Below, one piece after another: positions 2 to 35,747 of a stretch of 64,000 bases of DNA. Source of the DNA: Candidatus Fermentithermobacillaceae bacterium (GTDB taxonomy: Bacteria; Bacillota; Sulfobacillia; Fermentithermobacillales; Fermentithermobacillaceae); NCBI GenBank assembly GCA_018052475.1, contig JAGPNG010000008.1, positions 11,885 to 75,884 on the forward strand, written 5' to 3'. Positions within the stretch are counted from its first letter, which is position 1. Every line of letters begins with the position of its first letter. The notes beneath the pieces were generated by a model that made no database searches, was not told where the DNA came from, and worked only from the letters and a program-made list of their open reading frames with translations. The translations under genes and the position numbers were made by a program.

Positions 2-145
2 GATATGCTCAGAGATGCGCAGAAGAACCCCGACAAATATCGGGACTTGATAGTTCGTGTTGCAGGGTATAGTGATTACTTCTGCGATCTGACGAAAGCA
101 CTGCAAGATGAGATAATCGCTCGAACTGAACATTCGAGCTTCTAG
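2..145 (+). CDS. Glycyl-radical enzyme (PFL superfamily), C-terminal fragment; the 5' part lies outside the window.
   Basis: Frame 2 translates to ...[47 protein letters not shown]. The RVAGYS glycine-radical motif and the DEII(A)RT tail are typical of pyruvate formate-lyase-family C-termini. Stop codon at 143-145. Confidence 0.7.
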
Positions 146-182
146 TTTGTGTGACAGATCGACCTTTGGTTGATCGCTACCA

Positions 183-230
183 AGAGCCTTCCATACGAGA
201 CTGCCGGTCTTGGCGGAAGGCTCTAGTTTT
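183..230 (+). terminator. Candidate intrinsic terminator downstream of the glycyl-radical enzyme gene.
   Basis: Inverted repeat AGAGCCTTCC (183-192) / GGAAGGCTCT (215-224) followed by AGTTTT. The loop is large (22 nt), so this is a weak call. Confidence 0.4.
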
Positions 231-342
231 GAGATACACCTTTTGTGCCTACGCAAAGAGCGACCTTTGCAGGTTAACCAGAGCGTAGGTAGAACTTAAA
301 TGTCTGACGGTTGCGAAAACACATATCAGGGGGAGGAGACAT

Positions 343-1062
343 TTGATAGATAATTTGAGTCCGTTGAGGAAGCCAAATAAGATCACGGAGATAATCACAG
401 ATAAGATTCGGCAGATGATCGAAGAGGGCGTGCTTAAGCCCGGGGACAAACTTCCGACAGAGAAGGAGCTGTGCGAGGGTTTTGGAGTAGGGCGTTCGTC
501 TGTTAGGGAAGCGTTACAAGGTCTCGAGTACATGGGACTAATCGAATCAAGACCGGGGGTAGGCCGTTTCTTGTCATCTGATTCCGATGTCCTTCTCAAA
601 TCCGAGAATTGGAGGTTTACTTTGGACAAAGCCTCGGCCTTTGAGCTTATGGAGGCAAGGCGTATATTGGAAGTTAGCGCTGTCGAGTTGGCCGCGGAAA
701 GAGCTTCAGATGAAGTAATCAAAAGACTCAAGGAACTTTTAGGCGTAATGGAAAAAGTCATGGATAGCGACATGGATCTTTTTTTCGATAAAGAGCTGCA
801 ATTTCACCTTACTCTTGCGGGCGCCTGTCAAAACAGCGTATTGGTAGACCTTATTAACGGAGTGATACACCGAGTCACAAAAGATAGTGAGAGATTCCTA
901 AGGACTTTACCGTACACTTTTTCCCGGACCGTCGAGCAGTTCCAAACTATAGTCCGCGCACTTGAAGAAGGTGACCCGGTTCTTGCAGGACAGAAGATGG
1001 ATGAGCACCTGGATTTGGTGAGATATGCCTTGGGCAAAGACGAAGAAGGCGTAAGCGAGTAA
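343..1062 (+). CDS. GntR-family transcriptional regulator of the FadR/FCD subfamily.
   Basis: N-terminal winged-HTH block KLPTEKELCEGFGVGRSSVREALQGLEYMGLIESRPGVGRF, followed by an alpha-helical FCD-like C-terminal domain. TTG start preceded by the GGGGGAGGAG SD. Confidence 0.85.
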   Translation: MIDNLSPLRKPNKITEIITDKIRQMIEEGVLKPGDKLPTEKELCEGFGVGRSSVREALQGLEYMGLIESRPGVGRFLSSDSDVLLKSENWRFTLDKASAFELMEARRILEVSAVELAAERASDEVIKRLKELLGVMEKVMDSDMDLFFDKELQFHLTLAGACQNSVLVDLINGVIHRVTKDSERFLRTLPYTFSRTVEQFQTIVRALEEGDPVLAGQKMDEHLDLVRYALGKDEEGVSE

Positions 1063-1089
1063 TCCGGGTTCTCTAAAGGAGGGCTTGCA

Positions 1090-2094
1090 ATGAAGTTTTC
1101 GAAGATGATTACCGCGATAGATACGCATACATGCGGTGAGCCCACTCGGATTGTAACCGGCGGAATTGGCCCTATTCCCGGAAGTACGGTGTCTGAAAAG
1201 ATGCTTTACTTCAGGGAAAACATGGACTCTTTGCGCACCATGCTAATGCATGAGCCAAGGGGACACAGCGTCATGTCGGGGGCGATACTGACTGAGCCGT
1301 GCCATAGCGATGCTGATATTGGAGTAATATATCTGGAAACAGGCGGTTATCTTCCCATGTGCGGGCATGATACCATTGGCGTGTGCACAGCCCTTGTGGA
1401 AACGGGAATGGTGAATGTTTCAGAGCCTGTGACCTCTATAACATTGGAGACTCCTGCGGGGTTAGTCCGGGCCAAGGTCAAGGTGAAAGACGGTTCCGCA
1501 GAATCCGTGACTTTTAAGAATACCGAGTCTTTTTTGTATAAGAAAGGACTATGCGTTCACATAGACGGTATCGGAAACGTAGTTACGGATATAGCGTATG
1601 GTGGGAACTTCTATGCAATAGTGGACGCCGGAGATGTTGGGATCAAGATATCGCCTGAGTATTCGGCTGAGATAAAAAGGATTGGCAGCGAGATTAAGAA
1701 ACGTGTGAACCAGGAGATTGAAGTAATACATCCCGAGAAACCCTTTATCAGACAGGTTACCCATGTTTGCTTTAGCGAAAGGATGCACGCGCCTCGGCTT
1801 GGCAGGAAGAATGCGGTGGTCATAACTAACGGTGATATAGATAGGTCGCCATGCGGGACCGGCACATGTGCAGTGCTTTCTAAGATGTATTCTGAAAAAG
1901 AGATCGCGAAAGGGGACGTTTTTCTCAGCGAGAGCATAATTGGCACAAGGTTTTTTGCGTCGGTTGTCGAAGAGTCTTTGATAGGTGGTATCCCTGGAGT
2001 TTTATGCGAAGTGGAAGGCAGGGCTTTCATTACAGGTTTTCATACGTTTGTAGTGGATCCGCAAGATTCCTTGCGGGATGGATTCATGCTCTAG
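1090..2094 (+). CDS. Proline racemase / 4-hydroxyproline 2-epimerase family enzyme with the Cys/Cys catalytic pair.
   Basis: AIDTHTCGEPTRIVTGG N-terminus; catalytic Cys motifs MCGHDTIG and SPCGTGTCA; length 334 aa; AAGGAGGG SD. Confidence 0.85.
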   Translation: MKFSKMITAIDTHTCGEPTRIVTGGIGPIPGSTVSEKMLYFRENMDSLRTMLMHEPRGHSVMSGAILTEPCHSDADIGVIYLETGGYLPMCGHDTIGVCTALVETGMVNVSEPVTSITLETPAGLVRAKVKVKDGSAESVTFKNTESFLYKKGLCVHIDGIGNVVTDIAYGGNFYAIVDAGDVGIKISPEYSAEIKRIGSEIKKRVNQEIEVIHPEKPFIRQVTHVCFSERMHAPRLGRKNAVVITNGDIDRSPCGTGTCAVLSKMYSEKEIAKGDVFLSESIIGTRFFASVVEESLIGGIPGVLCEVEGRAFITGFHTFVVDPQDSLRDGFML

Positions 2095-2135
2095 GAGGCT
2101 CAAGGCTATCTGCAGTACGGAGAGAGGGATAAGAC

Positions 2136-2441
2136 ATGCGAGTAATATCCCATCCTGTGCTTGAAGACATGCAAGGCGCTAAATGGGTAGAGATTACCGT
2201 AGACGGTAGGAAAATAGTGGCACGGCAAGGGGAGAGCATTGCAGCGGCTCTTATGGCGGAAGGCATAAGGACAATGAGGTATACACCAGTAAGGTCCGAG
2301 CCCAGAGGAGTATTTTGCGGGATCGGACAATGTAGTGACTGCATGGTCACGGTAAATGGCGTTCCAAATGTGAGAGCATGTATTACCCCGGTTGAAGAGG
2401 GCATGGTCGTGGAAACCGGAACAGTTCAGCATCGAGGTTAG
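2136..2441 (+). CDS. Small (2Fe-2S)-binding subunit, like the gamma subunit of opine oxidase or D-hydroxyproline dehydrogenase.
   Basis: 101 aa; Cys cluster FCGIGQCSDCMVTVNG...RAC; immediately upstream of the FAD/NAD oxidoreductase gene. Confidence 0.7.
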   Translation: MRVISHPVLEDMQGAKWVEITVDGRKIVARQGESIAAALMAEGIRTMRYTPVRSEPRGVFCGIGQCSDCMVTVNGVPNVRACITPVEEGMVVETGTVQHRG

Positions 2442-2445
2442 AGAG

Positions 2446-3588
2446 ATGTCTCATCAGGTCGATGTTTGTGTGGTAGGTTCGGGCCCCTCTGGTCTTGGGG
2501 CCGCAATAGAATGCGCGAGATACGGTCTTAGCGTCATCGTTTTGGATTCCAATCTTCAAGCAGGCGGTCAGTTGAACAAGCAAATCCACAAGTTTTTCGG
2601 TTCTAGCGCCCACCGAGCGGGTACAAGGGGAATTCTGATAGCCCAAGAGCTTTTGGAGGAAGCCCTAAGTCTCGGCGTTAGGGTATGGCTTGACTCTGAA
2701 GTATACTCCGTTTCAAACGATCTATCCCTTCAGATACTAAAAGGCGTAAGAGCTTCTAAAGTAACGGCTGACCGCGCCGCGCATCCTTGTACCCTTATGT
2801 GCAGATACCTGGTCATAGCAACGGGAGCTTCAGAAAAACCGGCACTGTTCCCCGGTTGGACTCTTCCGGGGGTTATGAGCGCGGGGGCTGTTCAAACCAT
2901 GATGAACTTGGAAAGGGTTTTGCCGGGAAGGAATTTCATCGTTGTAGGCGCAGGGAATGTTGGGCTCATAGTTGCCTATCAACTTCTGCAGGCAGGAGCC
3001 CAAGTGTCATGTGTTGTTGAATCTAATAAAGAGATAGGTGGATATGCCGTACATGCTGCCAAGATAAGGCGGTGTGGAGTTCCTATTCTGACTGAAACTA
3101 CTGTAATACGAGTTTTGGGCATAGACCAGGTAGAAGCAGCAGAAATAGGTAGGATCGGTGCCGATTGGAATGGGAAAGACTCCGCTAGGAAGCGGATTTG
3201 TGTAGACACGGTGTGTATGGCAGTAGGCCTCAAACCGTATGCCAGGCTTGCTTCTTTAGCAGGGTGTGCGTTTGGATATTACCCTCAACTCGGTGGTTGG
3301 GTTCCCCTGCACGACGAGTACATGATGACTACGAAACAAAACGTGTACGTGGTCGGTGATGCTTCCGGCATTGAAGAAGGAGGAATAGCTGAGGATGAAG
3401 GTCGTCTAGCTGGTCTTGATATAGCTCTTAGGGAAAACCCTTGGGAAAGAAACCTGGATTTGAATCGTAACAGGGTGAGAGAAAGACTATGGGAGAATAG
3501 ATCCGGAAAATATATGAGTGATAAAGGTGATGCTAAACGAGATGTAATATCCCGCTGGCACAATCTGTCCGATCCATCGGGACCATAA
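2446..3588 (+). CDS. FAD/NAD(P)-binding pyridine-nucleotide-disulfide-type oxidoreductase, like the alpha subunit of heteromeric proline / D-hydroxyproline dehydrogenase or opine oxidase subunit A.
   Basis: Two Rossmann GxGxxG motifs (VCVVGSGPSGLGAA and FIVVGAGNVGL) and VVGDASG. The start was moved to the ATG at 2446, just after the upstream stop at 2441; the ORF track begins at 2392 inside the previous gene. Confidence 0.75.
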   Translation: MSHQVDVCVVGSGPSGLGAAIECARYGLSVIVLDSNLQAGGQLNKQIHKFFGSSAHRAGTRGILIAQELLEEALSLGVRVWLDSEVYSVSNDLSLQILKGVRASKVTADRAAHPCTLMCRYLVIATGASEKPALFPGWTLPGVMSAGAVQTMMNLERVLPGRNFIVVGAGNVGLIVAYQLLQAGAQVSCVVESNKEIGGYAVHAAKIRRCGVPILTETTVIRVLGIDQVEAAEIGRIGADWNGKDSARKRICVDTVCMAVGLKPYARLASLAGCAFGYYPQLGGWVPLHDEYMMTTKQNVYVVGDASGIEEGGIAEDEGRLAGLDIALRENPWERNLDLNRNRVRERLWENRSGKYMSDKGDAKRDVISRWHNLSDPSGP

Positions 3589-3618
3589 GACGCATTTTGA
3601 CGTTCCCAGTCTGCCATA

Positions 3619-3930
3619 TTGCCCTTTTCTCGTGGGAAAGGAGAGTTGTTTCATTTGGATGATGACGTGGTTGTCTGCAGATGTGAAGAAGTGACCGTTC
3701 GGGATGTGAAAAAGGCAATAGCCGAAGGGGCATTTGATATCGCCGGAGTAAAGCGACGCACAAGAGCGGGAATGGGGATTTGCCAGGGTAGAACATGTGA
3801 AGACCTGATCAGGCAGATTTTGGTTTCTGAACTTGGGATAGAACCCGAAGCGGTATTACCGGATAAGGTCAGGACACCTATATCCCCTGTTACTTTCGAG
3901 ATCCTATCCGGTGGTGGAGCCCATGAATGA
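3619..3930 (+). CDS. BFD-like [2Fe-2S]-binding domain protein.
   Basis: VVCRCEEVTVRDVKKAI ... GICQGRTCEDLI, the classic BFD-like CxC...CxxC pattern. The exact start is uncertain because no good SD precedes the 3619 ATG. Confidence 0.65.
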   Translation: MPFSRGKGELFHLDDDVVVCRCEEVTVRDVKKAIAEGAFDIAGVKRRTRAGMGICQGRTCEDLIRQILVSELGIEPEAVLPDKVRTPISPVTFEILSGGGAHE

Positions 3931-5092
3931 GGTTTGCGACGTCGTGGTAGTCGGCTGTGGCGTGATAGGTGCAGCCATAACATATTACTTATCGGCAGCC
4001 GGTATGAAAGTGATCGCCGTGGACAGGTCGGACATAGCTTCCGGTACGTCATCGGCTTGTGACGGGAATATACTTGCAATAGACAAAGAGCCTGGTTTTG
4101 ACTCAAGAATGGCTCTTGAAAGCCAAAAACTCTTCGAGACGCTTGAAAAGGAGCTTTCGTTTGATTTGGAATACAGGCATCTTGGGAGCACTTTGGCTGT
4201 AGAGGACGAATATCAAGTAGAGCAAGCTGCCGAATGGGAAAAAGCCATGAGGGAGTCAGGGCTTGATGTCAGATTGATAGGCCCGTCAGACGTGCACTCA
4301 TACGAACCTATGATAGCCGAGGATGTCCTTGGACTTTTGGAGTGTGCTTCTGACGCTTCACTAAACCCCATAGCGTTGGTCCGCGCTTATGTACTTGCAG
4401 CTAGAGGAAATGGGGCGGTCATAGAGGAGTTTACCGGGGTTAAGGACATCTTGGTTACCGCTGACGGTCGTGTTGCGGGAGTTGAGACTGATTTGGGCAA
4501 AATACTTGCGCCATTCGTGGTATTGGCCGCAGGGGTCTGGACTCCCGAGATAGCTAAAAGGTGCGGCATTTGCATTCCGATCCTGCCTCGAAAGGGCCAT
4601 ATTATTGTATCCGAAAGGACTTTTAGAGTTGGCAGTAGGAAGATCCAGGAATTTGGGTATCTGATGGCAAAATTCGGAACAAGAGATAGACGCGGCGTAG
4701 ATAGTGAAACAGAGCAATACGGCATAGCCATGGTATTTGAACCTACCCCCCACGGCAACTTCCTTATAGGCTCAAGTAGAGAGTTTGTGGGATTTGATAC
4801 TTCCTGTAACACGAAAGTTGTAGCGCTCATGGCAAAACGAGCCATGAGGTTCTTCCCTTGCATCAAGGACATTAGAGTTATAAGGACATATGCAGGGCTC
4901 AGGCCCTACACACCTGATCATCGCCCTATAATCTCCGAGGTAGACGGCATTTCAGGTTTGTATGTTGCTTCGGGTCACGAAGGCGATGGGATAGGGTTAG
5001 CTCCTATCACAGGTGTTTTGGTGCGTGACATGGTTCTTAAGCGACCTTCGCAGATACCCCTAGAACCCCTTAGTTTGAGAAGATTTGCATAG
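3923..5092 (+). CDS. FAD-dependent oxidoreductase of the DAO family, like the beta subunit of D-proline / D-hydroxyproline dehydrogenase or sarcosine oxidase beta.
   Basis: N-terminal dinucleotide-binding motif CDVVVVGCGVIGAAITYYLSAAGMKVIAVDR, and a C-terminal SGHEGDGIGLAP motif typical of the DAO family. Overlaps the upstream gene's end, suggesting translational coupling. Confidence 0.8.
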   Translation: MNEVCDVVVVGCGVIGAAITYYLSAAGMKVIAVDRSDIASGTSSACDGNILAIDKEPGFDSRMALESQKLFETLEKELSFDLEYRHLGSTLAVEDEYQVEQAAEWEKAMRESGLDVRLIGPSDVHSYEPMIAEDVLGLLECASDASLNPIALVRAYVLAARGNGAVIEEFTGVKDILVTADGRVAGVETDLGKILAPFVVLAAGVWTPEIAKRCGICIPILPRKGHIIVSERTFRVGSRKIQEFGYLMAKFGTRDRRGVDSETEQYGIAMVFEPTPHGNFLIGSSREFVGFDTSCNTKVVALMAKRAMRFFPCIKDIRVIRTYAGLRPYTPDHRPIISEVDGISGLYVASGHEGDGIGLAPITGVLVRDMVLKRPSQIPLEPLSLRRFA

Positions 5093-5259
5093 AAACAAAT
5101 CTCGTAGAACTTCTGAGATAACATTTCACAAAAGCAGGAGTTTTCTTGGCTATGGAGAACCTCCTTAATATGTATAGACATCAGACAATCTGATCGGAAT
5201 CGGAATGGGTGTACTTCTGCCCTCGTTGCGCATTAGCTCAATCAAGGAGGCGGTTGGAA

Positions 5260-6918
5260 ATGGGTGAGAGAGATAGCGTTAAGCTGGTCCAATTGTACAG
5301 AGATTTTGACGAAAGATGTGCTACTTGTCTTGATCAGATAAAAAGCACCAGAAGATACGAAAAGCAGTTGTATGTACCTTCTGAGGAAACTCGAAAAAAG
5401 GCCGAGAGGGCCCTACAAGAACTCTTGGCTGAGGCCGGCGAACTAGAGGCGCCTGATGTTGTTTTTGAGATACTCAAGAACCATTTTGACGAGTTCATTC
5501 GCGAGCAAATGTCCCATCTCAGGAGAATGTTTGCCGGACCCAGTTCTTTTATCAGCGGAATATCGAACACAATTGACTACTACTCAAGGAAAGACTCACG
5601 TAGCAGTTCAGAAAGAGCAGAGATCCTTCTAAGTAGGTTGAACAACATAGACGCGGTTTGGTCGGGCGTAAGAAAACTTCTTCCCTCTACTGCGATAGAT
5701 GAAGTATCACAGATGTCAGATGTATGTGACACTCTTTCCACAGTAGCAAAAAAGATGGTCTCTAGGGTTCCCGAACTATATAGCGGTATGTCAGAAAAAC
5801 TCGTTCAGGAAGTACAGTCAGAGTTAGAACGGGTATCTGAACGGGCAAAGGGCTGGGAACAAGAGGTAAAGGAATTTGTGGAATCAAGAAAGAGTGGTTC
5901 CGGACACAAGGAAGTAGTATCGGAGAGGGATCCCATTGAAGAATACAGGTACCTACTCTTAAATCAGTTTGGAGTGGACCTAGACCAGATCTTATCCTGG
6001 CATGAGGAAGAAATCGAAAAGACCAGATCTGAGATGTTCGAAATCGCTAATCGTATTAACGTTCCGGGGTTGCCAAAGGTAGATTCAGTAGAAGATGTGG
6101 TAGATATATTGAACAAGTTCGAGGGCCCGTGTGACGAGCCCGACGAGATGTTCGTTAGGATGAGAGATTATCTAGACAGGGCTCAAAAGGCTACGCGCGA
6201 GTTTGTGAAGCTCCCGGAAGAAAGTGTCGTGGTGGTTCCTACGCCGGATACCCTCGTCAAGCACTATCCTTGGGGAGGATACGGAGGAGGCTGTCCCAGG
6301 AGAAGGCCTCTTCAGGGCGAAACATTCCTTAACGTTGAGAACTACAAAGCTGTAACCGACGGCTGGATCAGGATGAATTCGGTACATGAATGCTATCCAG
6401 GGCATCACGTTCAGTGGGTACGATCGGTGCTAGATCCTCTTCCTGAGACCGTTAAGGTCGGTGCTCGCGGGGTTCCGACTTTGGAGGGCAGCGCACATAG
6501 GTCGGAACGTCTCATGGAATTCATCTATCCAGACGATCCATTCTATCCGCTATTTGTGGCCTATAGGCGTCACCATACCTCGGTGCGGATAAAAGCAGAT
6601 TTGTGGCTCAGGTACTTTGGGCGTCCCTTTGACGATGTGGTCGATCTATATGTCCAAGAGCTTGGCTTTGAAAGGAAAGTTGCATCGGGTCAAGTGTTGG
6701 CTCAAAACCTCATGAAGGGCTATTTCACCTGTTATTACTATGGAATGAAACGTTTGACAGACCTTGAGCGGCAACTGGGATACAACCAGAAAGATTTCAC
6801 CGAACTGATTTTTTCCTTGCCAAGGGTTAGCCTCAAGACTATGGAAGAATTCTTGAAACTAAGCGAGCCTGATAAGTCTAGATTGCTAACTGAGTTTCCT
6901 AGCAAGGTAACACTCTAG
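5260..6918 (+). CDS. Uncharacterised conserved protein, paralog A; a putative metal-dependent hydrolase.
   Basis: 552 aa from the ATG at 5260, which has a strong AGGAGG SD 12 nt upstream. Conserved blocks shared with the 8289-9968 paralog: YPWGGYGGGCPRRRPL, HECYPGHHVQWVR, DDPFYPL, YRRHHTSVRIKADL, GYFTCYYYGMK. Confidence 0.8.
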   Translation: MGERDSVKLVQLYRDFDERCATCLDQIKSTRRYEKQLYVPSEETRKKAERALQELLAEAGELEAPDVVFEILKNHFDEFIREQMSHLRRMFAGPSSFISGISNTIDYYSRKDSRSSSERAEILLSRLNNIDAVWSGVRKLLPSTAIDEVSQMSDVCDTLSTVAKKMVSRVPELYSGMSEKLVQEVQSELERVSERAKGWEQEVKEFVESRKSGSGHKEVVSERDPIEEYRYLLLNQFGVDLDQILSWHEEEIEKTRSEMFEIANRINVPGLPKVDSVEDVVDILNKFEGPCDEPDEMFVRMRDYLDRAQKATREFVKLPEESVVVVPTPDTLVKHYPWGGYGGGCPRRRPLQGETFLNVENYKAVTDGWIRMNSVHECYPGHHVQWVRSVLDPLPETVKVGARGVPTLEGSAHRSERLMEFIYPDDPFYPLFVAYRRHHTSVRIKADLWLRYFGRPFDDVVDLYVQELGFERKVASGQVLAQNLMKGYFTCYYYGMKRLTDLERQLGYNQKDFTELIFSLPRVSLKTMEEFLKLSEPDKSRLLTEFPSKVTL

Positions 6919-7017
6919 GGAACGAAGGTGAATTCTCTTTCAAAGAAGAATGTATTTGATGGTACCTGATGGATGTTGGCCAAGTTCTTGCTCAAAGAAA
7001 GGAGACTGAACGTAACT

Positions 7018-8211
7018 ATGCGCAAGTTTCGTGTTTCTCCGGAGGAATTCAAGAGGCGGACTGACGTTGTACTCGAAGAAATGAAGGGTAAGGATATTAA
7101 GGGCTTTGTGTTTTGGAGTTCGGTCAGTATTTTTTATCTTTCCGGGTTTGCGTTTATACCGACAGAAAGACCGCTTTGCCTCATCTTGTCGCAAGATGGC
7201 AAAAAAACGATTTTTGGGCCCAGATTGGAGCTTGAGCATGCCCGAGAATGCCCTGAGGTAGCGGATATAAAGACATATCCCGACTATCCGGGTAAAACGC
7301 ATCCAATGAAGCAGTTGGGAAAACTTTTAGAAGAGATGGGTTTAGGTACGGGTAAAATCGGAAGCGACGGAGGCGGATATGCATCGTCTTCGGGCTATCG
7401 GGGACCCAAGCTGTCTGAAGTCTTGCCTTCGGCGGAGATACTCATAGATCCCTATCTTATAGAGAATATGAGAATGGTTAAGTCCAAAGAGGAGATCTTA
7501 CTCATCAAGGAAAGCTGCAGATGGGGGAATCTTGCTCACAAGTTCCTACAGCTTTACTCAAAACCCGGAGCCTACGAGAACGAGATTTCGGCCAGAGCTT
7601 CCCTAGAAGCCACGCTAGCCATGATTAACACCTTGGGGCCGCTGTATGATCCGACCACCATAGGGCGCGGCGGCGCTAGCGCCGGTTTTAGAGGGCAAAT
7701 TGGGCCTAACTCGGCTTTGCCTCACGCCATGTCGATAAATGCGGTCCTTAAGCCCGGGGATGTTTTGGTTACAGGTGCGGGTGCGGGAGTTTTTGGATAT
7801 AACAGTGAGCTGGAAAGGACTATGTTTGTAGGTGAACCCGACGATGAGAAGAAAAAGTACTTTGACTTGATGATGCAGGCACAACAAGTGGCTTTTGATA
7901 ACATAAAGCCGGGCCGCAAGTGCTCTGAGGTTGATGCGGCTGTGTCCGCTTTCTATGAGAAGCACAGTCTTTGGGACTACTGGAGACATCACACGGGCCA
8001 CGCTCTTGGCTTACTTGGTCATGAGGCACCTTTCTTCGATGTAGCAGATGACACCGTAATCAAGCCCGGAATGGTGTTTAGCGTTGAACCGGGGCTTTAC
8101 GTGATGGGTCTTGGAGGCTTTAGGCATTCCGACACTATATTGGTTACCGAAACCGGTATCGAAATGCTCACCTACTATCCGAGAGATTTGGAGTCTCTTA
8201 TCTGCGGATGA
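7018..8211 (+). CDS. Xaa-Pro aminopeptidase/dipeptidase, peptidase family M24B.
   Basis: M24 pita-bread signature HHTGHALGLLGHEAPF plus metal ligands (D..D..H..E..E pattern). The start was set at the ATG at 7018 (MRKFRVSPEEF), which has an AAGGAG SD. Confidence 0.85.
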   Translation: MRKFRVSPEEFKRRTDVVLEEMKGKDIKGFVFWSSVSIFYLSGFAFIPTERPLCLILSQDGKKTIFGPRLELEHARECPEVADIKTYPDYPGKTHPMKQLGKLLEEMGLGTGKIGSDGGGYASSSGYRGPKLSEVLPSAEILIDPYLIENMRMVKSKEEILLIKESCRWGNLAHKFLQLYSKPGAYENEISARASLEATLAMINTLGPLYDPTTIGRGGASAGFRGQIGPNSALPHAMSINAVLKPGDVLVTGAGAGVFGYNSELERTMFVGEPDDEKKKYFDLMMQAQQVAFDNIKPGRKCSEVDAAVSAFYEKHSLWDYWRHHTGHALGLLGHEAPFFDVADDTVIKPGMVFSVEPGLYVMGLGGFRHSDTILVTETGIEMLTYYPRDLESLICG

Positions 8212-8235
8212 TTCAGTAACTGTGGCAAGAACGAA

Positions 8236-8278
8236 GGAGCAGGGGCTATCAGACAGAAAAGGTCCCTGCTCCTTTTTT
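8236..8278. terminator. Bidirectional intrinsic terminator between convergent genes.
   Basis: GGAGCAGGGG (8236-8245) / CCCTGCTCC (8264-8272) stem followed by TTTTTT (8273-8278). It lies between the 3' ends of the M24 peptidase (+) and paralog B (-). Confidence 0.7.
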
Positions 8279-8288
8279 GGAATGTGGA

Positions 8289-9968
8289 TTACCTATATTC
8301 AAGTTTGCTTGGAAAACCAGTCAGCAGTCTTGTTTTGTCTTGGTCGCTTAGAGTCAGAAACGCCTCGAAGTTGGATAGGCTCACATATGGCAAAGAGAAT
8401 AAGTATTCGGTGAAGGTTTTCCTATCATATCCATATCGTAGCTCCATATCCTCGAGTTTTTTCATCCCATAGTAATAACAGGTGAAGTAACCGATTCTGT
8501 TTTGAGGAAGTTGAGATACGGCTTGCCCTTTGGCGGTTTGATAATCGAAACCTAACTCGTCCATATATAACTTTATGGCATCTTCTAGTGGGCGGCCGAA
8601 ATACTGCATGTAAAGGTCGGCTTTGATCCTGACGGAAGTATGGTGACGCCTATAGGTCACCGCGAGCGGATAGAAAGGATCGTCATCATATATGTACTCC
8701 ATGAGTCTTTCTGTTCGATGACACATGCCTTCTTCCATTGGCACTCTCTTTGCGCCTAACTTCATGGTTTCGGGAAGCGGATCAAGGGTTGTGCGGACCC
8801 ACTGTACATGGTGGCCGGGGTAACATTCGTGCACTGCGTTTATCTTAATCCACCCGTCTGTGACTGCACGGTAGTTTGTGTCATTTAGAAACACTTCGCC
8901 GAGAAGAGGCCTTCTTCTTGGGCACCCGCCGCCATAGCCTCCCCAAGGGTACGTCTCCCTGCATTGTTCATACACAGGGACAACCCTGCAATCTTCTTCA
9001 GGCATGTTAACCCAGTCCCGACACGCTTTCTTGGCTCTGGCTAAATACTTCTTCATCCGGTCGAACATCTCAGTAGGGGAGGCAGCCGGTCCGGCGTACT
9101 TATTCATGATTTCAACTGCGTCAAGGGGCCCTTTTACCACAACGCCCGGAAGATCAAGGTGTGCGGCCGTTTCCACAAACTCCGCCCGGGTCTTTTCCAC
9201 TTCTTCCTCGTACCAATTTAACAATTCGTCTAGACTGACCCCTAGTTCTGTCTCCAAAACAGATCTATACCGTTCGGGACCGGCAGTAGCTATTTTGCCC
9301 TTGTCTTCTTTGTCGGGACGGTTTTCCAAGAGACTTTCTATCTCTTGCGCCCATCTGGAGCTTTTGGCTGCAAAGGTATCCAGCGCGTAAAGGATCTTTT
9401 CCATATCGCCTGCCGATAGACCTTGATACTCTTCTTTAGCCTTAGACTTTTCGATGCTTGCGACTCGAGCCAATAGCGAAGAAGCCGAGCTTGCTTCAAC
9501 AAGTTGAGCGCGCGGACTCGTTTCAAGGATATCTCGAAGCGCAGACCATAACTCGTCCAATAGATCGATTCTTGCCAGCAAGATCTCTAATCGGATTTGT
9601 GGTGGTCTTGAATCTTGACTTCCGAGGAACGTTAGCGAGTGAGTAAGCGACGATATGAACGCAGACGGATACTCGTACATGCCATCTAGATTAGATTTCT
9701 GCCCCTCTATGAAGTCTATTATGTGGCTCCTGAGAAGAGCAAAAACAGGGTCGGGCGCGGCACAGAGGTATGCTTCATGCAATATGTTATCCAATTCCTT
9801 CTCCTCGCGCTGTTTGGCTTCTTTCGTTGGAATGAACAGGTTCATTTCATAGTCGCGGTTATTGCGCAGTCTATCAGATTGAAGGCCGCACCGGTAATCC
9901 AGGTCAATATAGCTTTGGCGAAGATTAGACATGTCCTGGGAACTGTTCTTTCGGTTCAAATGCATCAT
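8289..9968 (-). CDS. Uncharacterised conserved protein, paralog B of 5260-6918.
   Basis: 559 aa; it aligns along its whole length with paralog A, including ETYPWGGYGGGCPRRRPL, AVHECYPGHHVQWVRT, YRRHHTSVRIKADL and GYFTCYYYGMKKL. The start could be one of the adjacent ATGs at 9968 or 9965, downstream of a GAGGTGG SD. Confidence 0.8.
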   Translation of the reverse strand: MMHLNRKNSSQDMSNLRQSYIDLDYRCGLQSDRLRNNRDYEMNLFIPTKEAKQREEKELDNILHEAYLCAAPDPVFALLRSHIIDFIEGQKSNLDGMYEYPSAFISSLTHSLTFLGSQDSRPPQIRLEILLARIDLLDELWSALRDILETSPRAQLVEASSASSLLARVASIEKSKAKEEYQGLSAGDMEKILYALDTFAAKSSRWAQEIESLLENRPDKEDKGKIATAGPERYRSVLETELGVSLDELLNWYEEEVEKTRAEFVETAAHLDLPGVVVKGPLDAVEIMNKYAGPAASPTEMFDRMKKYLARAKKACRDWVNMPEEDCRVVPVYEQCRETYPWGGYGGGCPRRRPLLGEVFLNDTNYRAVTDGWIKINAVHECYPGHHVQWVRTTLDPLPETMKLGAKRVPMEEGMCHRTERLMEYIYDDDPFYPLAVTYRRHHTSVRIKADLYMQYFGRPLEDAIKLYMDELGFDYQTAKGQAVSQLPQNRIGYFTCYYYGMKKLEDMELRYGYDRKTFTEYLFSLPYVSLSNFEAFLTLSDQDKTRLLTGFPSKLEYR

Positions 9969-10148
9969 CCCACCTCAGATTAGTTTTTCTGTCTCTTGCG
10001 ATGAAGTCTTTTGTATGACGAATATGAGAACTTTGTCATATCATCAGACATCAATCTACGAATTCTACATTGAGATTCGGAACCCTCTTTTGAGGAGTAA
10101 ACTCTTGCAAAGTTATATGTTTTATCGCTAGATGGTAGAATAGAGGAG

Positions 10149-11708
10149 ATGACGAATCCGGGGGTGAGACTAGCGTTGGATACAGTCGTTTACAAGGTAG
10201 ACCCTTTGCACCCTGATGAAGAGATAATCTCCAAATGCGCAGAGGTGATTTTGCGGGGGGGCCTGGTAGCGTTTCCCACTGAGACAGTCTATGGGATCGG
10301 CGGAAACGGTCTCGATCCGGTTGCTGTAGCAAAGATATTCGAGGCTAAAGGGAGGCCCCCAGATAACCCGCTGATACTGCACGTTTCGCGGCCCGAAAGC
10401 GTTGAGGCGTTAGTCGAGGAGATTCCGCCGGAAGCGGTCAGATTAATGGAGATGTTCTGGCCCGGTCCTCTTACGCTTATTCTTCCTAAATCTCATCTGG
10501 TGCCTTCAATAGTTACCGGAGGTTTGCCTACTGTGGCAGTCAGGATGCCGGATCATCCTGTAGCGCAGAAACTCATTGATGCTTGCGGCGTACCATTGGC
10601 AGCTCCCTCTGCGAATATATCGGGAAGACCCAGCGCTACGTCTGCTGAAGACGTGTTGGCGGATTTAAACGGCAAAGTGGATATCATTCTTGATGCAGGA
10701 CCTACTGAAATTGGCATAGAGTCGACGTTGGTGGATCTTTCTGGCGATGTTCCCAGAGTGAACAGACCCGGTGGATTGAACCTACAGAGCATTAGGGAGG
10801 TTCTTGAGACTGCCGATGTCGCTCCTCAGCCAAAATATAGACATTATGTTCCTGACAGTGACCTTTATCTTGTCACCGGTGATTTGATGCAACAGAGAAG
10901 AAAGTCGATATTCCATGCGATAAGGTTCATTGGTTCAGGTAAGAAAGTAGTCATTTTGGCGTCTGACGAAAATGCGCCGTTTTATGTTCCGTTCCAGAAG
11001 GTATTTGGCGATGACCGTATGCAGGTGATACCGCTGGGTTCCAGATGCGATCTTTCACCTGTAGCCGCAAAACTGTATTCAAGCCTTAGGCGCGCTTCAA
11101 ATGAATTGGGCGCAGATGTAATCTTATCGGAAACATTTCCCGAAGAAGGCATCGGTTTTGCCATTTCCAACAGATTAGAAATGGCAAGCGAAGGCAGGGT
11201 AGTCCCTTGGTTCGACTCGGCGTCAGACTATCAGCCCGCGCCACTTGCGATACTCATGGTCTGCTCCGGAAATACATGCAGAAGCCCAATGGCGGAAGGG
11301 CTTCTTAGGCGTCTGTGGAAAGATATAGGTGAGCCATATCCCATTCATGTTGCATCTGCCGGTGTATCGGCTATACCGGGGCTTCCGGCGTCGAGAGAGG
11401 CGATAGAAGTTATGGCCAAAAGAGGGGTAGACCTTTCATACCATAGGTCTAAGGCTTTAGAAATTGAAGATGTAAAAAGGGCAGATCTGGTTATAACGAT
11501 GACAAAGGCGCACAAAGCGGTCTTGGTATTGAGTTACCCTGAATTCTCTCACAAAGTGTTTACCCTATCGGAGATGATTTCTGATAGGGATTTAAGCGAT
11601 GTCCCTGATCCTTTTGGACAAGATTTGGAGATGTATGAGCGTACGGCAGATCTTCTCGAACAAAGCCTCCTGGTATTGGCAAAGAGGTTGGCGGGGTTGG
11701 ACGTTTGA
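10149..11708 (+). CDS. Fusion protein: L-threonylcarbamoyladenylate synthase (TsaC/Sua5/YwlC type) fused to a low-molecular-weight protein (Tyr/Arg) phosphatase (YwlE-like).
   Basis: N-terminal YrdC domain (GGLVAFPTETVYGIGGN, ILHVS) and a Sua5-type middle domain. The C-terminal approximately 160 aa begin ILMVCSGNTCRSPMAEGL, which is the CX4CR(S/T) P-loop of LMW-PTP / arginine phosphatase. A single uninterrupted 519-aa ORF. Confidence 0.8.
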   Translation: MTNPGVRLALDTVVYKVDPLHPDEEIISKCAEVILRGGLVAFPTETVYGIGGNGLDPVAVAKIFEAKGRPPDNPLILHVSRPESVEALVEEIPPEAVRLMEMFWPGPLTLILPKSHLVPSIVTGGLPTVAVRMPDHPVAQKLIDACGVPLAAPSANISGRPSATSAEDVLADLNGKVDIILDAGPTEIGIESTLVDLSGDVPRVNRPGGLNLQSIREVLETADVAPQPKYRHYVPDSDLYLVTGDLMQQRRKSIFHAIRFIGSGKKVVILASDENAPFYVPFQKVFGDDRMQVIPLGSRCDLSPVAAKLYSSLRRASNELGADVILSETFPEEGIGFAISNRLEMASEGRVVPWFDSASDYQPAPLAILMVCSGNTCRSPMAEGLLRRLWKDIGEPYPIHVASAGVSAIPGLPASREAIEVMAKRGVDLSYHRSKALEIEDVKRADLVITMTKAHKAVLVLSYPEFSHKVFTLSEMISDRDLSDVPDPFGQDLEMYERTADLLEQSLLVLAKRLAGLDV

Positions 11709-11727
11709 GAACAAAGGGTGTGAGGGT

Positions 11728-12882
11728 ATGAGACAGTTAAATGAGAGAGATCTCGTTGCTGCGGTTTGGGGCGGGGCGGTTTTGGGGGGCGGCGGAGGTG
11801 GTTCGCCTGAAGCAGGTTACCGCCTTGGGAAAAAAGGTTTGGAGATTGGGCGCGTGCTTTTGGCCGACGTAGACGAACTAGATGCTGATGACCTAGTCGT
11901 AACAGCGGGTTTGGTAGGTTCTCCAAAGAAAGGCGGCCTTGGACCTGCAGCCGAATCTTACGTAGATGCCTTTTCTTTTTTCCGACATGTCACAGGGGCA
12001 AGGATTTCTGCTATAAACTCTAACGAGTGCGGAGGTCTTGCAACTGTGAACGGGTGGCTTCAAGCTGCAGGTCTGGGCGTTCCGGTTCTGGATGCCCCGT
12101 GCAATGGGCGCGCTCATCCTACTGCCCTTATGGGAGCTATGGGATTGCACAAAGATCCGTCATATGTATCGAAGCAGGTGGCAATAGGAGATGGATCTCG
12201 GATGTATGTAGAGGGTCCGCTTGGGGATGCGTCTTCAATGGTTAGAGAGTTTTCCAAAAAAGACGGTCTTGTGGCAGTAGCCAGAAATCCTGTTAGCATC
12301 GGCTATGTGAAGCGAAATGCAGCATGTGGCGGAATATCAAAATGCATTGACCTTGGCTATGCAATGGCAGCTCATGTTCAAGAAGAACTAGGTTTTGATC
12401 CGCTTAAGCCTCAATACGTTGGAGGGTCACGAGAGTACCCTTTGGCCGGGTATTTTGCGTCGAGCATGGCTGCGATGGTGCTCGGTGGGGTGATTACCCT
12501 GATGGGCCAGGTAAAGGCGGTAGACATATCTACAAGAGGCGGTTTTGACGTAGGAGAGGTTGAGGTGGCATCTTTCGAGACTAAAAACGGCAACGGAACT
12601 ACTGCGCATTTAACTTTCATGAACGAGTATCTATCATATGGCCTAAAGGGGCATGTCATATTCAGTTTCCCTGACTTGGTTGCAGTGATGGATATGCATA
12701 CGGGGTGGCCTATATCCTCTGCGGACATAAAAGAGGGTATGGAGGTCATCGTTTTCGGTGTCCCATCAGATAATTTGATACTTGGGGCAGGCATGTATGA
12801 TAAAGAACTTTACAAGCCTCTTGAGGAGGCGACAGCCTTAACTTTTAACCTTCCTGTTTCAAAGAGGAGGTCAGACACATGA
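11728..12882 (+). CDS. Conserved hypothetical protein of unknown function, with a Gly-rich motif; possibly a DUF917 / S-Me-THD-like fold.
   Basis: 384 aa from the ATG at 11728, which has an SD GAGGGT; MRQLNERDLVAAVWGGAVLGGGGGGSPEAGY... I do not recognise a characterised family. The stop overlaps the rpiB start (ATGA). Confidence 0.7.
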   Translation: MRQLNERDLVAAVWGGAVLGGGGGGSPEAGYRLGKKGLEIGRVLLADVDELDADDLVVTAGLVGSPKKGGLGPAAESYVDAFSFFRHVTGARISAINSNECGGLATVNGWLQAAGLGVPVLDAPCNGRAHPTALMGAMGLHKDPSYVSKQVAIGDGSRMYVEGPLGDASSMVREFSKKDGLVAVARNPVSIGYVKRNAACGGISKCIDLGYAMAAHVQEELGFDPLKPQYVGGSREYPLAGYFASSMAAMVLGGVITLMGQVKAVDISTRGGFDVGEVEVASFETKNGNGTTAHLTFMNEYLSYGLKGHVIFSFPDLVAVMDMHTGWPISSADIKEGMEVIVFGVPSDNLILGAGMYDKELYKPLEEATALTFNLPVSKRRSDT

Positions 12883-34316: not shown

Positions 34317-35747
34317 GTGGCTTTGATGCCTTCTACGTTTACTGCTATCGAAATCGGAAAATCGGCTCTGCTTGCCGCAAGGCGTGCGATGGACACTACA
34401 GGTCACAACATAGCTAACGCTGCTACTCCAGGATATTCGAGACAGCGGGTGGTACAAGAGCCGATCATACAAAGGATTGATGTAAGTTCGGGTACATCCG
34501 GACTTGGCGTTAAGGTTACTGATGTTCAAAGGATAAGAGATCCGTTTATCGACGGGGTTTTGCGTAATGAACAGGCCAAGCAAGCGAGTTTCGAATCTCA
34601 GAAGGATGTTTTGGATCATTTACAGGTCGTTTTTGCCGAACCGTCAGATTCAAGCCTGAGAACATTTGTAGACTCTTTCTGGTCAGCGTGGCACGATCTT
34701 GCATCAGAACCACAATCCCAAGCTGCGCGCGCACAACTCATGGAAACAGGTCAGTCTGTTGCTGATATGTTTCGGCACCTGGGAAGTCAAATAGACTCCC
34801 TGGTAGGGGACGTGGAAGGCGCTATCAATTCGACGATAAATACGGTAAACCTTCTTAGCGAGAAGATTTGTTCTTTGAATACAGAGATTTCAAGGGGACT
34901 GTCTCGAAATGAGCCGGTTGGAGATCTTATGGACCGAAGAGACCTTCTTATCGATCAATTGACCCAGCTCACGGGTGCAACCGTGAGTTATCTTGACGAA
35001 GGCACTGTAAAAGTTAGCATTGGTGGCGTAGCGCTGGTAGACAAATACAAGTCTTACCCCATGTCGAGTTCGATAACCTCGGCGGGCGTAAAATACTTTG
35101 TATCTACAGGGCCTGCGAGCAGCGACAAAATACAGCTAGACTTGGTTTCCGGAACACTAGGAGGGCACAAAGTCGCAAGAGACGAGACCGCACTGAAGTT
35201 TAGACAAGAACTGAACACCATTGCGGCAGAGTTTTTTCAAGGGATCAATGATATCCATCAGACAGATTCTACTACCGGGCAGGTAGATCCATCGTACATT
35301 AAGTTCTTCGAGTTTTCCGGTTCTGATGTGCTTTCAACGCTCAAGGTAAACGATGCGATAGTAAACGATCCGAATAATATACGGGTGTCTGTAGGTAATG
35401 ACCCTTTGGATGGCACTGTCGCCCATGCAATTGCGGACTACATAGATGGCACGCCAAACAGTTTTATAATAGACGACACCGGAGGCAACTTCGCGGAGAA
35501 ATGGATGTCGATCGTGGGCAAAGTGGGGGTTGAAGGGCAAAAAGTAGAGATTGGTCACTCAACTCAGCAATTGCTGGTGAAGGAATTGGCAAACAGGAAG
35601 GACTCAATAAGCGGGGTGTCCCGAGACGAAGAAATTACAGAACTGATACGAGAGCAGCATGCTTTTAATGCGGCTAGCAGAGTTATAACTGTTGCCGATG
35701 AAATGCTCGATACGATAATAAATCGGATGGGAACAGGTGGCAGATAG
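34317..35747 (+). CDS. flgK: Flagellar hook-associated protein 1.
   Basis: N-terminal TGHNIANAATPGYSRQR rod/hook motif and C-terminal FlgK conserved helix; 476 aa. Confidence 0.85.
   Translation: MALMPSTFTAIEIGKSALLAARRAMDTTGHNIANAATPGYSRQRVVQEPIIQRIDVSSGTSGLGVKVTDVQRIRDPFIDGVLRNEQAKQASFESQKDVLDHLQVVFAEPSDSSLRTFVDSFWSAWHDLASEPQSQAARAQLMETGQSVADMFRHLGSQIDSLVGDVEGAINSTINTVNLLSEKICSLNTEISRGLSRNEPVGDLMDRRDLLIDQLTQLTGATVSYLDEGTVKVSIGGVALVDKYKSYPMSSSITSAGVKYFVSTGPASSDKIQLDLVSGTLGGHKVARDETALKFRQELNTIAAEFFQGINDIHQTDSTTGQVDPSYIKFFEFSGSDVLSTLKVNDAIVNDPNNIRVSVGNDPLDGTVAHAIADYIDGTPNSFIIDDTGGNFAEKWMSIVGKVGVEGQKVEIGHSTQQLLVKELANRKDSISGVSRDEEITELIREQHAFNAASRVITVADEMLDTIINRMGTGGR

Follow-up and report, generated by a model that had tools for sequence, protein, structure and literature searches.

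A trans-4-hydroxy-L-proline dehydratase encoded beside a predicted epimerase and a split-alpha flavin dehydrogenase in an anaerobic Bacillota bacterium: a putative hydroxyproline utilisation island

In guts, digesters and sediments, collagen-derived hydroxyproline (Hyp) is an amino-acid source of great importance. Two bacterial routes for its breakdown are known, and the literature places one of them, an oxygen-sensitive radical dehydration, with anaerobes. In C. difficile and many Clostridia, proC, the gene of delta1-pyrroline-5-carboxylate (P5C) reductase, adjoins hypD, which encodes trans-4-hydroxy-L-proline dehydratase (HypD, a glycyl-radical enzyme, GRE), feeding Stickland proline reduction (PMC6219649). 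Most genomes with HypD lack an adjacent proC, and the fate of the HypD product P5C in them is unclear; the other route, via an epimerase and a D-Hyp dehydrogenase, was hypothesised to be confined to aerobes (Huang et al. 2018, PMC6219649). This second route is represented in P. aeruginosa and A. brasilense by the epimerase LhpA and the alpha4-beta4-gamma4 D-hydroxyproline dehydrogenase (D-HypDH) LhpBEF. For the gamma subunits of D-HypDH and of OpnDH a C-X4-C-X2-C-X11-12-C motif has been defined (PMC4575208). A related archaeal cluster in T. litoralis encodes the proline racemase TlProR, alpha-beta-gamma-delta and alpha4-beta4 L-proline dehydrogenases (L-ProDH), a trans-3-hydroxy-L-proline (T3LHyp) dehydratase and a delta1-pyrroline-2-carboxylate (Pyr2C) reductase (PMC4364671). 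In S. meliloti and S. coelicolor, Hyp genes are under HypR regulators of the GntR/FadR-FCD type (PMC6608401). Here we analysed a stretch of 64,000 nt from Candidatus Fermentithermobacillaceae bacterium (GCA_018052475.1, contig JAGPNG010000008.1, positions 11,885 to 75,884), referred to as the window in its full length, whose 5' part carries the end of a hypD gene, an epimerase-like gene, a four-gene flavin dehydrogenase and peptidase genes. We consider it fairly probable that this locus is the core of a hydroxyproline/collagen-peptide utilisation island in an uncultured anaerobic Bacillota bacterium.

The components of the locus belong to known families; their combination in an anaerobe is undescribed so far, and we found no publication describing HypD paired with an epimerase/D-Hyp dehydrogenase. 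Distinctive are the presence of HypD, an epimerase and a split-alpha dehydrogenase of four polypeptides in an anaerobe, the lack of a deaminase in the locus, the DUF885 and M24 genes after the beta subunit, and a shared operator-like motif. A first-pass annotation of the window had described a proline/hydroxyproline catabolic module at 2-5092. Its seven elements are all present at the positions given there, as open reading frames (ORFs) with the corresponding Pfam domains, and the content of the module stands; its extent had to be revised, as it continues into a DUF885, an M24 and a second DUF885 gene and begins upstream of the window. The domain matches reported below are strong and do not stem from chance ORFs. 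The same genes are called on identical public contigs, with agreement also on the start of alpha.

The window itself contains the 3' end of hypD only (2-145, + strand; coding 2-142, stop 143-145), translating into 47 C-terminal residues with the radical glycine in an RVAGY motif (Pfam Gly_radical, E=1e-10). These 47 residues do not suffice to name the GRE (70.9 bits for HypD vs 67.9 bits for indoleacetate decarboxylase, with sulfopropanediol dehydratase near-equal), and the upstream contig was therefore needed. For the DNA upstream of the window we used a public contig (GCA_020049655.1, contig JAHZTS010000383.1; here L001, L-numbers denoting public loci that carry relatives of island genes), which shows 0 mismatches to the window across 12,094 overlapping nt. 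On L001, activase and GRE span 5676-9056 and run into the window. The radical-SAM activase (5676-6692, 338 aa) ends 4 nt before the GRE. The extension upstream, proposed in the first-pass annotation as a check, thus recovered the full enzyme with an activase directly in front of it.

The full GRE has 786 aa and scored 1413.7 bits on the NCBIfam HypD equivalog NF043068 (cutoff 1100), covering model positions 2-783 of 784. The next-best specific model, sulfopropanediol dehydratase, gave 589 bits, and the generic PFL2/glycerol-dehydratase subfamily model TIGR01774 gave 697 bits, above this next-best specific model. Aligned with the structure of C. difficile HypD (6vxc), the GRE is collinear and gap-free over residues 3-783 with 1182 bits, compared with 580 bits for glycerol dehydratase, 513 for HpyG, 509 for HpzG and 427 for HplG among the other solved GRE classes (PDB codes were linked to enzyme names via PMC13450708); HplG (a trans-4-D-Hyp C-N lyase), HpyG and HpzG, all Hyp-related GREs, were ruled out as identities of the GRE on these scores, and the enzyme is far closer to HypD than to glycerol dehydratase. 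Structural and mutational work on the C. difficile enzyme identified Phe152, Arg156, His160, Trp277, Asp278, Lys326, Ser334, Asp339, Phe340, Cys434, Val435, Glu436, Tyr450, Thr645 and Gly765 as catalytic or substrate residues (PMC7077986). All 15 of these active-site residues are identical at the equivalent positions of the GRE (offset -4), including the Gly loop with the radical glycine in RVxG, the Cys-X-Glu (C-V-E) loop and all substrate-binding and acid/base residues; among them, His160, Asp278, Ser334, Asp339, Phe340, Tyr450 and Thr645 are specific to HypD. The activase gave its best match to the HypD activase model with 409 bits, slightly below the cutoff of 425, and passes the general GRE-activase model TIGR02494 (363 bits, cutoff 174). 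By its sequence the GRE is thus a full-length trans-4-hydroxy-L-proline dehydratase with that predicted activity, as the first-pass annotation had suggested from the tail. Like C. difficile HypD and HypD-AE (6VXC/6VXE) it has an adjacent activase; unlike there, no proC adjoins hypD, and its neighbours are the epimerase, the flavin dehydrogenase and the peptidases.

The second enzyme of the locus is a member of the proline-racemase superfamily (1090-2094, + strand; Pfam Pro_racemase 384 bits). Its catalytic pair Cys91/Cys255 is present in MCGH and DRSPCGTG motifs, so that the racemase/epimerase residues are retained; this pair is common to proline racemases (ProR, EC 5.1.1.4) and Hyp epimerases (HypE, EC 5.1.1.8) and does not discriminate between them. 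On the ProR equivalog NF010576 the window protein reached 397 bits, below the cutoff of 556, and the A. sticklandii ProR, used as a control, 605 bits. None of the members of its subfamily that were tested reaches the ProR cutoff. The 4HypE equivalog NF010578 (cutoff 376) is passed by the relatives from Thermovorax (386 bits) and Brevibacillus (379 bits); that from Paenibacillus scored 374 bits. Ligand-binding sites known to part the two activities are site 1, with Phe in ProR vs Ser/Val in HypE, and site 4, where His is found only in HypE (Watanabe et al., PMC4364671); site 5 is Phe in ProR (PMC4364671, PMC1964878). A MAFFT alignment revealed Ser63, His225 and Ile245 at these sites in the window protein vs F/L/F in A. 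sticklandii ProR and F/L/W in T. litoralis ProR, and the Ser at site 1 and the His at site 4 are invariant in 86 of 86 subfamily members. With 156-211 bits on models of the Pseudomonas HypE branch, the protein belongs to the ProR-like branch of the superfamily, in which it differs from LhpA. The first-pass annotation had left the choice between a proline racemase and a 4-Hyp 2-epimerase. The Cys/Cys family and the epimerase type are borne out, and the proline racemase is not, so that the enzyme is a predicted 4-hydroxyproline 2-epimerase (trans-4-L-Hyp <-> cis-4-D-Hyp) and, on its sequence, a divergent member of its subfamily. As a separate observation, residues 256-264 (window 1855-1881) read GTGTCAVLS vs the family consensus GTGTSAKVA. 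Lys262 is conserved in deaminase-linked epimerases and in A. sticklandii ProR, T. litoralis ProR has Arg, and the window clade displays V, V, M, E, V or R.

Downstream of the epimerase, four genes on the + strand encode a gamma-like [2Fe-2S] subunit (2136-2441; Pfam Fer2_4 109 bits), an alpha-like flavoprotein (2446-3588; Pyr_redox_2 100 bits), a small protein with a BFD-like [2Fe-2S] and an SO_alpha_A3 domain (BFD/A3; 3655-3930; Fer2_BFD 53 bits, SO_alpha_A3 44 bits) and a DAO-family FAD protein, the catalytic beta subunit (3923-5092; DAO 215 bits). Gamma and alpha are separated by 4 nt and alpha and BFD/A3 by 66 nt, and BFD/A3 overlaps with beta by 8 nt. The three non-DAO proteins map successively on the soxA model TIGR01372 (gamma 15-98, alpha 164-479 with 121 bits, BFD/A3 522-597). 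Gamma carries the motif C-X4-C-X2-C-X12-C. Alpha has two dinucleotide-binding motifs, GSGPSG and GAGNVG, the second being an NAD-type Rossmann motif, and is without the C-terminal BFD domain found in three-subunit enzymes; BFD/A3, a polypeptide of 91 aa with four Cys as C-X-C...C-X4-C, is by its sequence the detached C-terminal part of alpha. All LhpBEF-type motifs are therefore present, with the second cluster on a separate polypeptide, a variant architecture common to the Bacillota relatives. A separate BFD/A3 gene is also found in the Hyp clusters of Paenibacillus and Priestia.

The four-gene enzyme thus appears to be a split-alpha variant of the SoxAB/LhpBEF/OdhABC/HcnABC type. Its likeness to LhpBEF, judged by architecture and motifs, comprises a Cys/Cys epimerase beside genes for a DAO-type beta, a Fer2_4 gamma and a Pyr_redox_2 alpha, both of the [2Fe-2S] motifs (PMC4575208), and relatives of the window genes that adjoin an LhpC-type deaminase. 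Differences are the split alpha, giving four genes instead of three, the anaerobic host, and the lack of a deaminase and an alpha-ketoglutarate-semialdehyde dehydrogenase in the window locus. Beta shares 48-66% identity with Hyp-cluster betas, and each of the positions conserved to at least 95% in 51 deaminase-linked betas is retained in it (87 of 87). Its identity is 35-39% to Streptomyces plasmid homologues, which we infer to correspond to SCO6289, the D-HypDH beta on the S. coelicolor chromosome (PMC6608401), and 24-27% to DAO-family homologues on plasmids of Agrobacterium, the taxon in which opine oxidases occur; these homologues have no annotation more specific than FAD-dependent or FAD-binding oxidoreductase and are thus only possible OoxB/NoxB proteins. 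Beta groups with the Hyp-cluster betas and not with these Agrobacterium homologues. On its neighbourhood and the 87 conserved positions, we predict for beta the activity of a D-imino acid dehydrogenase acting on cis-4-hydroxy-D-proline. Solved structures did not help with the substrate, since beta matches glycine oxidase (4ysh, 114 bits) and the P. horikoshii L-ProDH beta (1y56_B, 106 bits, full-length) about equally, alpha matches SoxA, and the PDB holds no structure of a D-HypDH, HcnC or opine enzyme; a substrate call from this source was dropped. Among the enzymes to which the first-pass annotation had likened the four genes, D-HypDH is the closest; the archaeal proline dehydrogenase and the opine oxidase OoxAB fall away.

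Behind beta follow three peptidase-like genes: a DUF885 gene (5260-6918, + strand; Pfam DUF885 119 bits), an M24 metallopeptidase of the Xaa-Pro dipeptidase (prolidase) type (6973-8211, + strand; Peptidase_M24 143 bits, Creatinase_N 48 bits; start at 7018 in the public gene call) and, in convergent orientation, a second DUF885 paralogue (8289-9968, - strand; 94 bits), which is 48.5% identical to the first by tblastn. The best solved relatives of the M24 protein are the proline dipeptidases 3q6d, 1pv9 and 1wy2. Both DUF885 proteins carry an HE..PGHH motif resembling a metal site and are presumed, on this motif, to be metallopeptidases for Pro/Hyp peptides. The literature search yielded no functional study of DUF885, and the PDB only one 'putative lipoprotein' with E=1e-4. 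DUF885 directly follows beta in L012, L015, L016, L018 and L019, and is also found in the Hyp cluster of L037; it occupies the position after beta that in other lineages is held by a DHDPS-type deaminase. The second DUF885 gene is present in L016 as well. More broadly, DUF885 is linked to Hyp genes and M24 in L012 and L015-L019, and loci with DUF885 also include L037 and L038.

The genes are set in several transcription units. A nested hairpin followed by AGUUUUGAG (183-224, + strand) lies behind hypD; the RNA fold of 140-240 has -39.1 kcal/mol (z = -4.66), and 0 of 200 shuffles fold as well. It looks like an intrinsic terminator ending the activase-hypD transcript, and hairpin and U-run together imply that activase and hypD form a transcript of their own. 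A scan with sigma-70 and terminator consensus patterns gave no more sites than in shuffled sequences and missed the hairpin because its loop is nested. Directly before the epimerase, a GntR/FCD regulator of the FadR subfamily is encoded (343-1062, + strand; Pfam GntR 73 bits, FCD 93 bits), a candidate HypR-like protein, and an orthologous GntR precedes the epimerase in L009, L012, L013, L014, L016 and L018. A candidate operator, TGTCTGAYG, was found in the GntR promoter region (TGTCTGACG, 301-309, + strand), in the intergenic region between beta and DUF885 (TGTCTGATG, 5179-5187, - strand; found at this position in L015 and L019, too) and upstream of the minus-strand DUF885 gene (TGTCTGATG, 10042-10050, - strand; conserved in L016 at 19161). 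The only other match in the window, inside a flgK-like gene (34317-35747) at 35256-35264 on the - strand, is presumably due to chance. The 64 kb thus hold four sites with about one expected by chance, and three of the four lie in intergenic regions of the island. A fourth island site, a tandem copy, is located upstream of the activase (L001 5559), so that the motif marks the four promoter regions of activase, GntR, DUF885(+) and DUF885(-); its sites are conserved in L015, L016 and L019. Canonical FadR-type operators (T.GT...AC.A) gave one weak match only in the intergenic regions. Judged from these positions, the local GntR probably controls all units of the island via TGTCTGAYG. It shares with the HypR proteins of S. 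meliloti and S. coelicolor the domain architecture, the place directly before Hyp genes and an operator-like sequence in its own promoter; the likeness is one of architecture and position, and the candidate operator differs from the S. coelicolor site TACAATGTCAC.

To see how these genes are arranged elsewhere, one genome per GTDB species was scanned with the epimerase, which revealed 80 loci with 50-97% identity; the census is centred on the epimerase and not on HypD. The closest species-level epimerases are from a Bacillota metagenome-assembled genome (MAG) with 97% identity and from two Ca. Fermentithermobacillaceae MAGs with 82% and 70%. Beta is found in 61 of the 80 loci, 49 of these also with a DHDPS-type deaminase, accompanied by an aldehyde dehydrogenase in aerobes or an aldehyde:ferredoxin oxidoreductase (AFOR) in anaerobes. 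In Paenibacillus polymyxa and on the Priestia megaterium plasmid pBMV_2, the four polypeptides recur (beta 48-52% identical), neighboured by an aldehyde dehydrogenase, a gene of the DapA/DHDPS family and either one or two of the ProR family, and these clusters are the canonical pathway from Hyp to alpha-ketoglutarate. MAGs of anaerobes (Clostridia, Ignavibacteriales, Bipolaricaulota, Thermotogae, Spirochaetaceae and Deltaproteobacteria; L013, L014/L044, L023, L034, L040, L067, L029 and others) show the order epimerase, Fer2_4, alpha, 2x[4Fe-4S], BFD/A3, beta, DHDPS, often followed by AFOR, and some also contain AcnX. AcnX is a cis-3-Hyp dehydratase. This order is apparently an undescribed anaerobic pathway from Hyp to alpha-ketoglutarate in which AFOR replaces the NAD(P)-dependent aldehyde dehydrogenase. 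The window locus resembles these clusters in its epimerase (52-59% identical) and in the order of gamma, alpha, BFD/A3 and beta; it differs in having neither the 2x[4Fe-4S] subunit between alpha and BFD/A3 nor DHDPS and AFOR after beta, and in having HypD in front. In the window clade as a whole, the 4Fe-4S subunit, the deaminase and an aldehyde-oxidising enzyme are absent, and DUF885 and M24 follow beta instead.

HypD lies within 10 kb of the epimerase in 6 of the 80 loci, distributed over at least four lineages with different gene orders. Paired loci within the window clade are L015, L016 and L019. The cultured Thermovorax subterraneus has the order M24, S-Me-THD-like, sigma-54 regulator, epimerase, SSF transporter, HypD, activase, and a Selenomonadales MAG the order activase, HypD, ABC transporter, epimerase, class-III aminotransferase; both of these GREs keep the HypD-specific residues without change. 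In a Deltaproteobacteria MAG, HypD stands beside a complete epimerase-DHDPS-beta-gamma-alpha-AFOR set. The combination of a radical and a flavin route, which the first-pass annotation had raised for the window, is thus seen here in HypD beside the epimerase and dehydrogenase genes and recurs in other lineages. In L019, HypD and AFOR come first, followed by a distant second dehydrogenase set, DUF885, GntR, epimerase, the orthologous four-gene set, DUF885, M24 and finally an OCD-family gene. The second set (L019 1-9042, equal to L009 1-6222; also L018 1830-9109) comprises AFOR, Fer2_4, alpha, 4Fe-4S, BFD/A3, DAO and DUF885, its DAO protein being only 28% identical to the window beta. By its gene content it resembles the archaeal PDH1-type L-proline dehydrogenase and, together with AFOR, might oxidise proline or P5C to glutamate.

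In the favoured reading of a hydroxyproline/collagen-peptide island, the peptidases would free trans-4-hydroxy-L-proline from Pro/Hyp-rich peptides. In a radical branch, HypD would dehydrate it to P5C. In a flavin branch, the epimerase would interconvert trans-4-L-Hyp and cis-4-D-Hyp and so supply the dehydrogenase, whose beta subunit would oxidise cis-4-D-Hyp to delta1-pyrroline-4-hydroxy-2-carboxylate (Pyr4H2C); the epimerase would also let D-Hyp drain into HypD. Electrons would pass from the FAD of beta via FMN and the two [2Fe-2S] clusters to the flavin of alpha with its NAD-type motif, and GntR would govern all transcription units through TGTCTGAYG. Enzymes that would take up P5C (a P5C reductase or dehydrogenase) or Pyr4H2C (the DHDPS-type deaminase with an aldehyde oxidoreductase) are not among the genes recognised in the 73 kb.

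Several observations weigh against this reading. A tblastn search of the window and 8.9 kb upstream (73 kb) detected no DHDPS-type deaminase, aldehyde dehydrogenase, AFOR, OCD or AcnX, which leaves the flavin branch incomplete here. The same search found no 2x[4Fe-4S] (Fer4) subunit, which most anaerobic relatives carry; its absence from the window clade throws doubt on the electron acceptor. The terminator-like hairpin parts hypD from the remaining genes. The window epimerase reached 323 bits on the 4HypE equivalog, below its cutoff, and its raw bits are closer to the ProR model (397 vs 323). It also departs from 51 deaminase-linked members at 6 of the 98 positions that at least 95% of them share, against 21-24 for true ProRs; three of the six, S260C, K262V and A264S, just past the catalytic Cys255, are clade-specific changes that make a shift in epimerase specificity possible. 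No member of the epimerase subfamily or of the Bacillota-type four-polypeptide dehydrogenases has been assayed, and their function is a predicted one only; for the B. cereus cluster, which is not shown to belong to the window subfamily, the evidence consists of growth and transcripts only (eLife 2014, PMC4113996).

The alternative that survives best, unlikely as we hold it to be, is a proline module, in which the Cys/Cys enzyme would be a ProR or a bifunctional ProR/HypE and the four-subunit dehydrogenase would resemble PDH1 (alpha-beta-gamma-delta) of Thermococcales and act on L- or D-proline. Such a module would oxidise proline, or work in reverse as an NADH-driven reduction of P5C, and converge with HypD at P5C. 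The best PDB matches of the epimerase are indeed proline racemases (7pb3, 319 bits), and of the models ProR scores highest in raw bits; the ProR cutoff is missed by 159 bits, a cutoff that the A. sticklandii enzyme does pass, and Ser and Ile stand in place of the two Phe against which proline packs in ProR. In T. litoralis, a bifunctional ProR is encoded together with an alpha-beta-gamma-delta L-ProDH (PMC4364671), which parallels the Cys/Cys ProR-superfamily enzyme and four-subunit SoxAB-like dehydrogenase of the window, and L019 likewise has two dehydrogenase sets and an OCD-family reductase. The T. litoralis cluster, however, is without HypD, TlProR has Phe/Leu/Trp where the window protein has Ser/His/Ile, and the ferredoxin-like subunit of PDH1 is absent from the window set. 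Beta aligns in full length to the P. horikoshii L-ProDH beta, but this low similarity is no better than that to glycine oxidase, and the fully conserved positions and 48-66% identity tie it to deaminase-linked Hyp-cluster betas. PDH1 itself, which has a ferredoxin-like gamma and a beta close to PH1364/PdhB, is disfavoured as an identity by the gap of only 66 nt between alpha and BFD/A3, the lack of a 4Fe-4S subunit and the 106 bits of beta to 1y56_B. In favour of a proline module are also the lack of a deaminase by tblastn, the proline that a prolidase would release, and, after the cluster in L019, a gene of the OCD family, to which Pyr2C reductases belong. Against it, no D-proline reductase is found nearby: no Prd-like genes are among the annotated ORFs of the window and the upstream DNA, not every ORF having been scanned. 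Neither proC nor a P5C dehydrogenase is among the annotated ORFs, and the tblastn search did not cover proC.

A joint reading, which goes further than the hydroxyproline island and which we regard as rather unlikely, would have the island run a Stickland-like dismutation of Hyp as single substrate, with new roles for DUF885 and DUF6754. Some of the Hyp would be oxidised by epimerase and dehydrogenase, yielding reducing equivalents via the NAD-type alpha, and the HypD branch would take them up in the conversion of P5C to proline. DUF885 might then act in a novel manner on the imino-acid product or on Hyp peptides, and the four-gene membrane module with DUF6754 might import Hyp or peptides as a transporter of a new type. 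Two paralogous modules of this kind lie upstream on L001 (401-5482), divergent from the activase and inverted to each other, with 33-40% identity between paralogues, each consisting of a DUF6754 protein and three multi-pass membrane proteins without a Pfam family. The same module (58-71% identical) is found in L037 (5767-8635), from an unrelated Bacillota MAG, between DUF885 and the epimerase; in L039, too, the last gene of the module stands before the epimerase. We regard the DUF6754 module as a candidate for a new hydroxyproline or peptide transporter.

It is improbable that HypD and the epimerase/dehydrogenase/peptidase genes are two unrelated operons, regulated and used independently, which happen to be neighbours. 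The strong hairpin after hypD would fit such an arrangement, as would the low number of HypD-paired loci in the census and the lack of HypD in L012, L017 and L018, these stretches being short or with little upstream DNA. The same 9-mer, however, stands upstream of the activase, GntR and both DUF885 genes at a frequency above chance, the adjacency of HypD and epimerase recurs in distant lineages with different gene orders, and both systems act on the same substrate.

That the four genes encode an oxidase of opines, sarcosine or N-alkyl amino acids, or an enzyme resembling hydrogen cyanide synthase, unrelated to hydroxyproline, is very improbable: the architecture is common to OoxAB/OdhABC, HcnABC and SoxAB (PMC4575208), the pieces do map on SoxA, and some sources label homologues as 'sarcosine oxidase subunit beta', but beta gives 91 bits on the soxB model (cutoff 529), has 24-27% identity to the Agrobacterium plasmid homologues vs 48% to Bacillaceae Hyp-cluster betas, which speaks against grouping it with opine oxidases or dehydrogenases, a folate-binding GCV_T domain is lacking, and the neighbours across the family are Hyp enzymes.

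Taken with the census, the predicted hydroxyproline island argues against a split of the two Hyp routes between anaerobes and aerobes. Genes of the flavin route are widespread in anaerobic phyla, with ferredoxin-like subunits and with AFOR in place of an NAD-dependent aldehyde dehydrogenase, and in several lineages the route is joined to HypD physically and probably also in its regulation. The Bacillota form of the dehydrogenase consists of four polypeptides. DUF885 and DUF6754, both domains of unknown function, gain functional leads, and Thermovorax subterraneus is a cultured carrier of the HypD-epimerase pairing that could be used for study.

Beyond the island, the window contains housekeeping genes (Sua5, rpiB, V-type ATPase, murA, mreB, flagellar genes, metK, secA, prfB and uvrAB), and no RNA family of Rfam reached its threshold anywhere in the window. 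An ORF of 519 aa at 10149-11708 encodes a Sua5/TsaC protein (threonylcarbamoyl-AMP synthase, with Sua5_C) fused to a low-molecular-weight phosphotyrosine phosphatase domain. Near the island, an S-Me-THD-like (DUF917) gene is located at 11599-12882; in the HypD/epimerase locus of Thermovorax (L030 2099-3232) such a gene adjoins the M24 peptidase, and it may belong to the same metabolism.

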